Source: Escherichia phage RB32 | Direction: 5' to 3' (one strand) | Length of the DNA stretch: 64,000 bases | Sequence record: NC_008515.1 | Shown: in pieces, positions 7,920 through 11,926 of the stretch | How the letters are laid out: the number at the start of each line of letters is the position of its first letter | How positions within the stretch are numbered: position 1 is the stretch's first letter | Notes under the pieces: model-generated | The model's input: only the letters and a program-made list of their open reading frames with translations | What the model was told of the DNA's origin: nothing | The model's database searches: none | Translations under genes and position numbers: made by a program

Positions 7920-8390
7920 TTAATCATGTTTCCACACCCCATCGGTATTTGACCAAAGCCGCTGATTATCTGATCCTCGCCACAGCTTTTTGGTCGGAAG
8001 ATTTTTCTCATACTTCCCATCAATAATAACATCAACATATTTAAGCATTTCTAGTTGTTTAATATCTTCAAACTTATATCCTGTCCACAACCAAATGCTT
8101 TTATTGGGATAAAGATTTTTTACTGTTTGAACAATGCAATGAATAACATCTCGGTTATCAGGATAGAGAGGGTCACCTCCAGTTATAGTCAATCCTTCTA
8201 TATAATCATTATTCAAACATTCAATTAATTGCTCTAGTGTTTCACCAGTGAATGGAATACCATTTCTAGCATTCCATGTTGATTTATTATAACACCCTTC
8301 ACATTTATGCAAACAACCTGTAACGAAAAGAACGGTCCTGCAGCCAGGACCATTAATAAAATCGCAAGGATAAAATCTATCATAATTCAT
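7920..8390 (-). CDS. nrdG: Anaerobic ribonucleotide reductase activating protein (radical SAM)
   Basis: 156 aa; CxxxCxxC motif (GCLHKCEGCYN); matches T4 NrdG length and sequence as recalled. Confidence 0.95.
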   Translation of the reverse strand: MNYDRFYPCDFINGPGCRTVLFVTGCLHKCEGCYNKSTWNARNGIPFTGETLEQLIECLNNDYIEGLTITGGDPLYPDNRDVIHCIVQTVKNLYPNKSIWLWTGYKFEDIKQLEMLKYVDVIIDGKYEKNLPTKKLWRGSDNQRLWSNTDGVWKHD

Positions 8391-10204
8391 TGGTGTTTAA
8401 CCCTATGCATGATTTCTTTATTTTTGCCGAGATTAAATCCGCGTTCGTTCGGATTTCCCAAATAACCACACGTTCTTCTTATTGTGTTCATCTTTTTAGG
8501 ATCAGTTTCTCCACAAATAGAACAAACAAATCCGTTTTCAGTAGGAGTCATTTCATGGGTACTTCCGCATGTAAAACACTTATCTACTGGCATATTAACA
8601 CCAAAATAATCTAAATGTTGTGCAGCATAATCCCATACAGCCTCAAGACCTTTTAGGTTATTTTTCATATCAGGAAGTTCAACATAAGAAATGTGACCAC
8701 CTGTCGCAATGAAATGATATGGCGCTTCACGAGAAATCTTTTCAAACGGAGTAACATTTTCTTCTACTGAAACGTGGAAACTGTTAGTGTACCAGCCTTT
8801 ATCGGTAACATCTTTTACGCTTCCATATTTTTCTGTATCAAGTTTACAGAAGCGATAACAAAGGTTTTCAGCAGGAGTCGAATACAAACTAAAAGCAAAC
8901 CCAGTTCTTTCAGTCCACTGTTTAAGATGAGCATTCATTTTAGTTAAAATTTCTCGTCCAATATCACGACCGACAAGAATATTCAATTCGTGAATACCAA
9001 TGTATCCTAGGGACACTGAACTTCTACCGTTTTTAAATAACTCAATTATGTCGTCATCAGGTTTAAGACGAACCCCGAATGCACCTTCTTGGTAAAGAAT
9101 AGGAGCAACAGTAGCTTTAACTCCTTTTAAGGAACTAATTCTACACATCAAAGCTTCAAAACACAAATCCATACGTTCATTGAATAATTCAACAAATTTC
9201 TGTTCGTTAAATTGTGTTCCAATATAAGAATCTAATGCAATGCGAGGAAGATTCAGTGTTACAACACCAAGATTATTACGTCCATCAAGAATTTCATTAC
9301 CAGTCGAATCTTTCCATACGCTCAAGAAACTACGGCAACCCATTGGAGAAACAGGAATAGATGAACCGGTGATAGCTTTATTATTCTTAACTGAAATAAT
9401 ATCAGGATACATCCTTTTGCTTGCACACTCTAGAGCAAGCTGCTTAATATCATAGTTCGGATCGTCTTTATAAAGATTAACGCCTTCTTCAACGAACATA
9501 ACAAGTTTAGGAAAAATAGGAGTTATCCCATCACGACCAAGACCTTTAATACGATTTTTCAAAATTGCTTTCTGAATCATTCGTTCAGTCCAGTCAGTTC
9601 CCGTACCAAATGTAATTGTTACAAAAGGAGTCTGTCCGTTTGAACTAAAGAGAGTATTTACTTCATATTCATAAGCTTGGAATGCATCGTATACGTCTTT
9701 TTCTGTTTTAGATTGGGCATAATTCAGTGCATCGGCGATTTGCCATTTTTCTGCGTCCTCGATATGTTTTGCATAGGTGCGTTTAACATAAGGAGAAAGT
9801 ACTTTATCTACATTCGCAAAAGTCGTTCCGCCGTATTGGTGAGAAGCAACCTGTGCGGTAATTTGTGCCATAATTGCAGTAGCAACGCCAATTGATTTAG
9901 GAGTTTCAATCTGCGCATTACCAAGCTTAAATCCGTTCTCAAGCATTCCTTTTAAATCTACTAAACAACAATTAGTAAATGGAAGAGCAGGGGAATAATC
10001 AATATCATGAAAATGAATAATTCCGCTTTCATGCGCTTTCATAATAAAAGACGGGACCTTATTTTTGGCAATGTGTTTAGACACAATACCAGCCATAAGG
10101 TCCCGTTGAGTTGGAAAAACACGAGAATCTTTATTAGCATTCTCGTTTAAAAGGTCTTTATTAGTTTTATGAATCAATCCTTCAATTTCTTTTTCAATTG
10201 TCAT
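8387..10204 (-). CDS. nrdD: Anaerobic ribonucleoside-triphosphate reductase (glycyl radical enzyme), uninterrupted
   Basis: 605 aa; C-terminal zinc ribbon CFTCGSTHE..CSICGE and glycyl-radical region (RRTCGYLG); single ORF without intron. Confidence 0.95.
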   Translation of the reverse strand: MTIEKEIEGLIHKTNKDLLNENANKDSRVFPTQRDLMAGIVSKHIAKNKVPSFIMKAHESGIIHFHDIDYSPALPFTNCCLVDLKGMLENGFKLGNAQIETPKSIGVATAIMAQITAQVASHQYGGTTFANVDKVLSPYVKRTYAKHIEDAEKWQIADALNYAQSKTEKDVYDAFQAYEYEVNTLFSSNGQTPFVTITFGTGTDWTERMIQKAILKNRIKGLGRDGITPIFPKLVMFVEEGVNLYKDDPNYDIKQLALECASKRMYPDIISVKNNKAITGSSIPVSPMGCRSFLSVWKDSTGNEILDGRNNLGVVTLNLPRIALDSYIGTQFNEQKFVELFNERMDLCFEALMCRISSLKGVKATVAPILYQEGAFGVRLKPDDDIIELFKNGRSSVSLGYIGIHELNILVGRDIGREILTKMNAHLKQWTERTGFAFSLYSTPAENLCYRFCKLDTEKYGSVKDVTDKGWYTNSFHVSVEENVTPFEKISREAPYHFIATGGHISYVELPDMKNNLKGLEAVWDYAAQHLDYFGVNMPVDKCFTCGSTHEMTPTENGFVCSICGETDPKKMNTIRRTCGYLGNPNERGFNLGKNKEIMHRVKHQ

Positions 10205-10674
10205 TTTAAACTCTTTCTAAGCTGCTTCTTAAATGAAGCTATTAATTGTGTTTTGGTGTCAGATTCATTATATTCAAATCCTCTTTGAAGCATCTCGGCC
10301 ATCATTTCCTCTTTTCCTAAACGAGAAAATTCCTTTGATTTATCTCCAACAAAGTTAGGGTGAATATTATTTTGGGTGTAATCGGATTTTAAATAAGTAA
10401 GTAAATTTTCTAACCATTCAAGATAATCAACACCTTGTCCCTTTAAGCCAGAACGATTAAATTTATGCTTCATTTGACCTTCTGCGGCATTGCATAGATT
10501 ACAAAGCAATCCACGTACCTTTCCTGCTTTTGGTCCATTTAATTCATGGTCATGATCAAGATGATTAGCTTGAACATCAGGATTTAGTTCTCGTTGGCAA
10601 ATTAAGCATTTACCGTTTTGTGCATTATAAAATTTCTGTTTTTCTTCTTTGTATAATTTGCCAGTCAATAACAT
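10201..10674 (-). CDS. 49: Endonuclease VII (Holliday junction resolvase) gp49
   Basis: 157 aa; near-identical to T4 EndoVII as recalled (MLLTGKLYKEEKQKFY..CLICQREL..HLDHDHE). Confidence 0.95.
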   Translation of the reverse strand: MLLTGKLYKEEKQKFYNAQNGKCLICQRELNPDVQANHLDHDHELNGPKAGKVRGLLCNLCNAAEGQMKHKFNRSGLKGQGVDYLEWLENLLTYLKSDYTQNNIHPNFVGDKSKEFSRLGKEEMMAEMLQRGFEYNESDTKTQLIASFKKQLRKSLK

Positions 10675-10680
10675 AATAAA

Positions 10681-10705
10681 ACCCTTACCTTAAATAGATA
10701 AGGGT
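10681..10705 (-). terminator. Possible stem-loop terminator upstream of gene 49
   Basis: ACCCTTA..(11-nt loop)..TAAGGGT followed by a T-rich run on the transcript; large loop, weak. Confidence 0.3.
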
Positions 10706-10716
10706 ATTTATTATTT

Positions 10717-10893
10717 TTAAGTATTGTAAAACATTCGATGCAATCGTTTATACTGTCGAATCATCTTTTTAGTAGGACGAGAATAGGTTCCTACGCAAGT
10801 GGTCATATGAGGGTCCGTAGAATGTCCTTTAATAAAAAGTTTCCAAACCTTACCGCCATTTAACTTTTCAGTATAAACCAATTCGGTTTTCAT
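10717..10893 (-). CDS. Chimeric small ORF (58 aa) whose last 15 codons duplicate the 3' end of the adjacent upstream gene
   Basis: Own translation MKTELVYTEKLNGGKVWKLFIKGHSTDPHMTTCVGTYSRPTKKMIRQYKRLHRMFYNT; C-terminus MIRQYKRLHRMFYNT vs MIRQYKRLHQMFYNT in the 10930..11415 gene; AGGA 8 nt upstream of ATG. Confidence 0.4.
   Translation of the reverse strand: MKTELVYTEKLNGGKVWKLFIKGHSTDPHMTTCVGTYSRPTKKMIRQYKRLHRMFYNT
10719..10765. repeat. Imperfect direct repeat (about 41/46 nt identical) of 10930..10976; a second short repeat pairs 10903..10928 with 10980..11003
   Basis: aagtattgtaaaacattcgatgcaatcgtttatactgtcgaatcat vs aagtattataaaacatttgatgcaatcgcttatattgccgaatcat. Confidence 0.7.
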
Positions 10894-10929
10894 TAAAATG
10901 TCCTGTCAGAAAAAGAATTTTGAGTTTTT

Positions 10930-11415
10930 TCAAGTATTATAAAACATTTGATGCAATCGCTTATATTGCCGAATCATTTGGTCAGAAAAAGAATTTTGAG
11001 TTTCAAGCCATTCAATATATTCTGCCGCAGCTTGCATCAGGTTACCTTCATAGCCATCGTTATTTTCTTGCGCAGCTAATTTAGCTAATGCGTATGAAAT
11101 ACGTTCACCTTGAAAAGAGGCTTCAGGCTTCTGAACAACTTGATTAGTTCGCTCTACAACTTCTTCAATTTCGCCATTTTCAACGGATTCAGTATTCCAC
11201 AAGCACCAATACGTAATTGGCTTATCATAGATATTAATAATCTTTCCACCAGAAAGTTCAATTTCAATAATTCCAGTATCAGGCTCTATATCATCTTCAC
11301 ATTCTTTTGTAAGTTCACGAACTTTAAAGACAGTACCTGCACTAAGTTCCGGCCAGTAATTACACAGCCCTGTATCAGCACGATTAATTCTAAACCACTT
11401 ATCTACTGTAATCAT
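10930..11415 (-). CDS. Hypothetical protein at the T4 pin (protease inhibitor) position; 161 aa from MITVDKW
   Basis: 167-aa track ORF; internal Met gives 161 aa; the pin assignment is by position and length only. Confidence 0.6.
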   Translation of the reverse strand: MITVDKWFRINRADTGLCNYWPELSAGTVFKVRELTKECEDDIEPDTGIIEIELSGGKIINIYDKPITYWCLWNTESVENGEIEEVVERTNQVVQKPEASFQGERISYALAKLAAQENNDGYEGNLMQAAAEYIEWLETQNSFSDQMIRQYKRLHQMFYNT

Positions 11416-11485: not shown

Positions 11486-11710
11486 CGGTTCTTCCGGCTC
11501 TGGCTCTACAGTTTCCCATCTAGCCGCCCACCAGGGTTTAACCCCGAAGCTTATTAAGTTCTTCATAATCAATCCAGGATTCTAGTCCTGATGGCAAATC
11601 AGATTCAATTTCCCAAAGAAGTTCTTCAATTTTCTGAAGACGATCTAATTCTTCAGCTGGAATAGTAACCATTGATGGAGTTCTTGATACACTAATATCG
11701 TAAATCATAT

Positions 11711-11926
11711 TTACCCCAGTTTAACCATGCAATCGCCGTATTTCCACTTAGAAATAGACTTTTCGCCATTAGAATAATAAACTTCGAGTTTAGCACGGTT
11801 ATTTTTAATTTGAATAATCTTTGCTGTCATCAAAGTTCCATACCCATAGTAAACTGCAACTTCATCACCTACATATACCGCGCTTCCGCGGTAATCATGG
11901 ATATAATCAGTTCCTTCGAGCATCAT
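11711..11926 (-). CDS. Hypothetical small protein
   Basis: 71-aa ORF; start overlaps nrdC stop. Confidence 0.5.
   Translation of the reverse strand: MMLEGTDYIHDYRGSAVYVGDEVAVYYGYGTLMTAKIIQIKNNRAKLEVYYSNGEKSISKWKYGDCMVKLG

Follow-up and report, generated by a model that had tools for sequence, protein, structure and literature searches.

The window analysed here, a stretch of 64,000 nucleotides from Escherichia phage RB32 (NC_008515.1), is 100% identical between positions 10100 and 11600 to Enterobacteria phage RB33 (KM607001), and the RB33 names are used below for the genes of this region. The locus is organized on the minus strand and comprises, in the order of the coordinates, the genes nrdD (8387-10204) and 49, a small ORF of 58 amino acids, the Lon protease inhibitor gene pin, and 49.1 followed by further genes (Table 1). 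Gene 49 is the downstream neighbour of the small ORF and remains unaltered in all four arrangements of the locus described below. The hairpin located directly upstream of its start is similarly kept in all arrangements, behind whichever gene precedes gene 49, and is annotated as a terminator in the phages Aplg8 and SP1. With respect to the more remote neighbours, nrdD of RB33 consists of a single uninterrupted ORF of 605 amino acids, while nrdD of T4 is split by a group I intron carrying I-TevII. In place of the T4 genes 49.2 and 49.3, RB33 carries two different genes, 11538-11708 (-) and 11711-11926 (-), one of which encodes a 56-aa protein assigned to phrog_3402 ('antitoxin') that also matches, below the threshold, PF25708, the T7 gp5.9 RecBCD-inhibitor family (E = 5e-4), and the other a 71-aa DUF7205 protein.

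Table 1. Features occurring at the pin-gene 49 locus, with their positions in the window and the basis of their assignment.
Feature	Position	Strand	Basis
Gene 49, recombination endonuclease VII	10201..10674	-	ORF and RB33 annotation; identity with other T-evens at 466-471 of 474 nt
Hairpin followed by a T-run, directly upstream of the gene 49 start	10681..10705	-	10 pairs, 4 GC; alignment columns invariant
58-aa DUF7279/phrog_3272 gene (RB33_080; RB69ORF087c orthologue), intact	10717..10893	-	ORF, profile matches, conservation
Repeat A: codons 44-58 and stop of the DUF7279 gene, native tail	10717..10764	-	Repeat, alignments, predicted helix 42-56
Remnant 3' end of an unfused pin (relic), with repeat B (10905-10927)	10893..10927	-	Sequence reading; identical to the live SP1 pin 3' end
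Putative illegitimate junction between fused pin and relic module	10928..10932	-	pin stop TGA followed by an A-run; coding strand ACTTGAAAAAACTC
Repeat A': last 15 codons and stop of pin, putatively captured DUF7279 tail	10930..10977	-	Repeat; absent from 148-aa and 136-144-aa pins
Repeat B': pin codons ..ETQNSFSD, immediately before the fusion point	10981..11003	-	23/23 identical to B
pin, 161 aa, fused (T4-type) Lon protease inhibitor	10930..11415	-	PF10465, 159 bits; phrog_2167; annotation

Two pairs of direct repeats occur in this region. Repeat A (10719-10765) and repeat A' (10932-10978), spaced by 213 nt, are identical without any gap at 41 of their 47 positions; in a control performed on the 900-nt region (200 shuffles), the highest identity reached by a 47-mer was 30, with a mean of 27. 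Repeats B and B' are spaced by 76 nt, and their perfect match grows to take in the heptamer CTTGAAA once a 3-nt indel is allowed in an A-run. The earlier note was essentially correct regarding the coordinates and the identities of both repeats, as well as the existence of the 58-aa ORF and the resemblance of its C-terminus (MIRQYKRLHRMFYNT) to that of Pin (MIRQYKRLHQMFYNT), 14 of the 15 residues being shared. The gap separating gene 49 from pin measures 41 nt in T4 and exactly 213 bases more in RB33, namely those located between A and A'. Read along the coding strand, the RB33 locus is organized as pin..B'-CAA-A'(TGA)-AA-B-AGGACATTTTA-ATG..small gene..A-hairpin-gene 49, in which the segment containing B reads ..TQNSFSDRTF-stop, is detached from any pin gene, and overlaps the ATG of the small gene by its stop (TAATG).

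The 58-aa ORF, which is recorded as a 'hypothetical protein' in GenBank, belongs to a Pfam domain family, DUF7279 (PF23945), and its residues 7-56 span positions 1-53 of the 53-position profile with a score of 62.7 bits (cutoff 24.5). It is covered over residues 1-58 by phrog_3272 (E = 3e-34), and full-length copies of the gene were identified by tblastn in 411 phage records. Orthologues located between pin and gene 49 occur in Tequatrovirus (Aplg8, HMD-9 and SP1), in Dhakavirus (FB and IME281), where a protein of 61 amino acids follows pin or a pin remnant, and in Mosigvirus (SF and RB69), where a protein of 59 amino acids is encoded between a 136-aa pin and gene 49. A 56-aa paralogue of about 41% identity is found upstream of pin, or in phages devoid of pin at this locus. 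The proteins of RB33 and SP1 share 100% amino-acid identity. The tail motif RPTK(K/R)..R..KR.HR.FY is the best-conserved part of the family: R46, K49, R50, R53 and F55 are invariant among 8 sequences, down to 38% identity and including the upstream-of-pin paralogue, and the tail is kept in orthologues and paralogues to 38-42% identity, even where pin is tailless or missing at the locus. Pairwise dN/dS values of 0.07-0.22 among the Tequatrovirus, Dhakavirus and Mosigvirus copies show that the small gene is under purifying selection. The earlier note had named a conserved, clearly functional small gene in related phages as an argument against its own reading, and this is borne out in part, as regards the conservation and the purifying selection.

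According to AlphaFold, the 58-aa protein would consist of three beta strands followed by a C-terminal helix (residues 42-56) which corresponds to the tail, the best of the five models reaching a pLDDT of 81.6 and the other four 54-61. When this model was compared with the structures of the PDB, nothing scored below E = 0.2, and the highest-ranking entries were scattered beta-alpha fragments considered uninformative. A sequence search of the solved structures retrieved only a designed helical repeat in the case of Pin and no match in that of the small protein. Searches of NCBIfam and PADLOC returned nothing relevant. An exhaustive profile search gave only 8 matches at E < 1e-3, and three long proteins in this search, each with 6-7 short stretches, were discarded as spurious. 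No sigma-70-like promoter was found inside 10700-10930. Most likely, the small gene encodes an accessory protein of the early or middle class which the phage can dispense with and which is putatively made together with Pin.

Several other features of the family and of its surroundings were observed. In E. coli O157 typing phage 13 (locus L008), the annotation splits the downstream DUF7279 orthologue into two small CDS (2096-2274), as a 1-nt frameshift would do, whether it reflects a pseudogene or an error of sequencing. In Mosigvirus, a second DUF7279 paralogue occurs directly upstream of pin (L008 1501-1671; L025 1029-1199). In a distant T4-like contig (L026), the place of DUF7279 between pin and gene 49 is occupied by an acidic ORF of 94 amino acids (1946-2230), which was considered as a possible relative of DUF7279 and rejected as unrelated; the slot between pin and gene 49 thus takes different small genes.

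The Pin protein of RB33 matches the PinA/Inhibitor_I24 family (PF10465; cutoff 27 bits) over residues 4-140 only, leaving the tail outside, and phrog_2167 covers its residues 1-146. Residues 147-161 accordingly fall outside the Pin family profile, and forms of 148 and 136 amino acids occur without them. In the Tequatrovirus phages Aplg8, HMD-9 and SP1, pin encodes 148 amino acids ending in ..ETQ(I/N)SFSDR(A/T)F, and its stop overlaps the ATG of the small gene (TAATG). Pins at 41-46% identity are tailless and end in ..QLEFSSKSF, ..QLEFNAKSF or ..QLAFSDRGF, whilst the Dhakavirus pin remnant ends in ..RFSDRAF and overlaps the small gene at TGATG. Taken together, these ends and overlaps suggest that the unfused end of pin and the start/stop overlap are ancestral. 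With respect to other parts of the protein, the segment QENNDGYEGNLMQAAAEYIEWLE (window 10996-11064 (-), Pin residues about 118-140) is nearly unchanged between Pins which are only about 45% identical overall; it could be a functional core or a block homogenised by recombination. In Dhakavirus IME281 (L011 729-1204), 'pin' is annotated as two CDS, the second of which is devoid of the usual Pin C-terminus, and Dhakavirus FB possesses only a 57-aa C-terminal Pin remnant before DUF7279.

Depending on the state of pin and of the small gene, four layouts are distinguished among Tequatrovirus, the record counts given for them being estimates extrapolated from evenly spaced result rows rather than a census. 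Type I, with an unfused pin and the small gene joined by the TAATG overlap, occurs in approx. 65-85 records (e.g., Aplg8, HMD-9 and SP1); type II, with a fused pin only, in approx. 230-250 records (e.g., T4, T2 and RB51); type III, with a fused pin, the relic and the small gene, in approx. 100-118 records (e.g., RB33 and YUEEL01); and type IV, with an unfused pin and a clean deletion of the small gene, in about 75 records (e.g., Sf22, with the junction TTTTAAT|ACTTGA). The IMG/VR scans yielded only 6 loci each, a number too small for a census. Alignment of the T-even phages at the 49/pin junction, as suggested in the earlier note, designates type I as the putative ancestral form. The DNA of T4 corresponds to type I minus 137 nt, these comprising the last two codons and the stop of pin together with codons 1-43 of the small gene, and T4 pin reads ..SFSDR+MIQQYKRLHQMFYNT. 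Very probably, then, the chimera is Pin rather than the small ORF, and the comparison indicates that T4 PinA is likewise chimeric, with its last 15 residues presumably derived from the neighbouring gene.

The order and the mechanism of the events are deduced from about 15 fully read sequences belonging to mosaic T-even genomes, in which allele sharing can mislead. The starting point would have been a type I genome whose pin ended in ..SFSDR(A/T)F, with a stop overlapping the ATG of the small gene. An in-frame deletion of 137 nt would have removed the last two codons and the stop of pin as well as the first 43 codons of the small gene, thereby joining pin to the last 15 codons of the latter and creating the 161-aa T4 Pin of type II. 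Later, a genome with a fused pin would have gained an SP1-like module, made of the pin 3' relic and the small gene, just past the pin stop, to give type III. The left join would have been illegitimate, in the A-run beside the shared CTTGAAA, and the right join an ordinary homologous exchange in the region of the tail, the hairpin and gene 49. The heptamer CTTGAAA adjoins the left junction in both partners, and about 100 phage records have this RB33-type junction in common; the junction nevertheless contains three A's in excess of those left by a precise crossover within CTTGAAA, which makes the mechanism of the left join uncertain. Recombination between A and A' could return the locus to type II with the loss of 213 bp, and recombination between B and B' to type I with the loss of 76 bp. 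RB51, a close relative of RB33, was considered as a recent product of such an A/A' deletion and set aside: its layout is that of type II, but with a distinct allele of the tail (..RLNQ..). The idea that the AGGA of the relic represents an improved Shine-Dalgarno sequence, evolved after the segment ceased to be coding, was also rejected, since AGGACA encodes R-T in the live pin of SP1.

Other histories of the locus were weighed against this scheme. The earlier note had interpreted the repeats as the footprint of an insertion or tandem duplication which took the 3' end of pin and made a new, chimeric 58-aa ORF. A rearrangement is indeed apparent, and set beside T4 the locus has the look of 213 bp inserted between copies of the pin tail, but the capture appears to have proceeded in the reverse direction. 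The supposedly novel N-terminus and the tail make up a single family conserved across three genera, of which the ORF is a full-length member with its native tail; the tail occurs alongside a tailless pin in SF, RB69, Aplg8 and SP1 and is lacking from distant pins, and the dN/dS values of the small gene are unlike those expected from a young chimera. The creation of a new small ORF from the pin tail is, on these grounds, extremely improbable. According to another explanation, type III is an intermediate rather than an end point: a type I genome would have duplicated the 3' end of pin together with the small gene, the first copy would have been deleted in frame, and T4 would have arisen by A/A' recombination. 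Such a course requires no cross between lineages, and it agrees with the difference of exactly one 213-bp repeat unit between T4 and RB33 and with the complete identity of B and B' within RB33. However, in other type III phages B' and the relic B are different alleles, with ATT (Ile) in the former and AAT (Asn) in the latter, and A and A' show 5-6 differences over 48 nt, yet the RB33 relic, junction and gene are essentially identical in the alignment to those of present-day SP1, a type I phage which carries the relic sequence as its live pin end. In addition, the fusion codon, CGA in T4 and CAA in types II and III, is a single step from the CGA of the Aplg8 type and three steps from the AGG of the SP1 type, which is also that of the relic. 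Type III is for these reasons a quite unlikely intermediate. The allele difference between B' and the relic, the divergence of A and A', the match to SP1 and the fusion codon together favour a cross over a recent tandem duplication within one genome, and a cross of two lineages, one with the fused pin and the other SP1-like, is considered moderately probable, the route being the one that we infer above. The overall interpretation, an intact ancestral DUF7279 gene and a pin fused by deletion, with the small gene subsequently regained by RB33 along this moderately probable route, is considered highly likely.

A second fusion was found in Mosigvirus, in a metagenome contig and in the isolate vB_EcoM-ZQ3, where a 141-aa pin ends in ..EYLERR+FHRDFYNVY with a junction at the shared CGTTT, the small gene being gone and gene 49 coming next. 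Among the records listed in the same search, the other Mosigvirus phages, RB69 included, display the unfused two-piece arrangement. This pin-tail fusion in ZQ3 is independent of the T4-type fusion. At the opposite end of the protein, a metagenomic protein of 191 amino acids (P0045) results from an upstream DUF7279 paralogue which reads through into pin as an N-terminal fusion.

The recurrence of such fusions raises the idea that the tail is a portable functional peptide, e.g., a Lon-directed or partner-binding helix, which has been kept in pin by selection on two occasions. Two independent in-frame fusions of pin with the C-terminus of the same gene speak for it, along with the conservation of the pin/small-gene start-stop overlap in Tequatrovirus and Dhakavirus and a tail whose frame and length stay constant in every fused pin that was read. 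However, the two fusions retain tails of different lengths, 15 versus 9 residues, the Pins of types I and IV are tailless, and the many phages of type IV possess a pin without either the tail or the small gene. In the model of Pin, the tail prolongs the last helix with a low confidence, the pLDDT being below 50 over residues 143-159. The substitutions are also informative: tail copies residing within the small gene show 0 nonsynonymous and 1-3 synonymous changes, whereas the fused tails of pin exhibit mainly nonsynonymous changes (M44K, R46Q, H52N), and in all of them the family-invariant R53 is replaced by Q53. These differences, though small in number, point to a relaxed or altered constraint on the fused tail, and the loss of the invariant R53 together with the mostly nonsynonymous variation does not favour the mimicry of the Pin C-terminus by the small protein which the earlier note had raised, next to competition, as something that could occur. 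A tail maintained by selection as a portable peptide is therefore deemed unlikely, and we infer that the tail in Pin is a tolerated appendage. The start/stop overlap and the recurrent fusions nonetheless offer a modest hint, of a speculative kind, at a functional link of DUF7279 to Pin and Lon. A bolder and rather doubtful version of this link would have the C-terminal helix of the small protein act on the target of Pin (Lon or a partner of Lon), the two proteins forming a co-translated pair, and Pin having captured the helix twice, independently, upon loss of the small gene; if this were true, T4 PinA would be a two-in-one inhibitor, and the two copies of the helix found in RB33-type phages could cooperate or compete.

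A search of the literature within a limited library gave nothing on DUF7279, RB69ORF087c, a pin fusion or a chimeric C-terminus of PinA, and the borrowed tail of the reference T4 PinA appears to be previously undescribed. To our knowledge, the 161-aa T4 protein was used in all the biochemistry of PinA. Many natural Pins lack the last 15 residues of this protein, which would be borrowed, and studies relating structure to function in Lon inhibition should therefore compare the forms of 161, 148 and 136 amino acids. The pin locus, with its four layouts and its second, independent fusion, also offers a clean natural series, which illustrates more generally how small genes may be created, destroyed and restored in T-even phages through short-homology deletion and recombination between lineages.

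Compared with the systems already described, the pin of RB33 has the same 161-aa fused form as PinA from T4, the inhibitor of E. coli Lon, which binds and inhibits Lon without being degraded by it (PMC8835725). The small gene resembles the DUF7279/RB69ORF087c proteins of other T-even phages in its full-length match, its size within the range of 56-61 amino acids, its position between pin and gene 49 and its motif. The protein itself is no different from DUF7279 proteins found elsewhere, and the RB33 copy is distinguished by what precedes it, a detached relic of the pin 3' end in place of a live pin with an overlapping stop. With mobile-element insertions, such as homing endonuclease genes and promoter/stem-loop cassettes, the locus has in common the extra DNA relative to T4 and the nearby direct repeats; an insertion of this type with target-site duplication was nevertheless rejected, as the repeats are arranged in the order B'-A'-B-X-A and not as symmetric flanks, and the insert contains neither an endonuclease or transposase gene nor a promoter-like site.

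Short-homology deletions and duplications occur in the plastic regions of T4-type genomes, and the mechanisms operating at the pin locus are ordinary microhomology rearrangements for such regions. The junctions similarly lie at homologies of 1-7 nt (TTTTA..AAT, CGTTT and the A-run/CTTGAAA), and the gene content similarly varies between conserved genes. The pin locus differs from these other plastic regions in that the outcome of an in-frame fusion now serves as the reference allele for a protein that has been studied, and that a later event would have restored the lost gene beside it.
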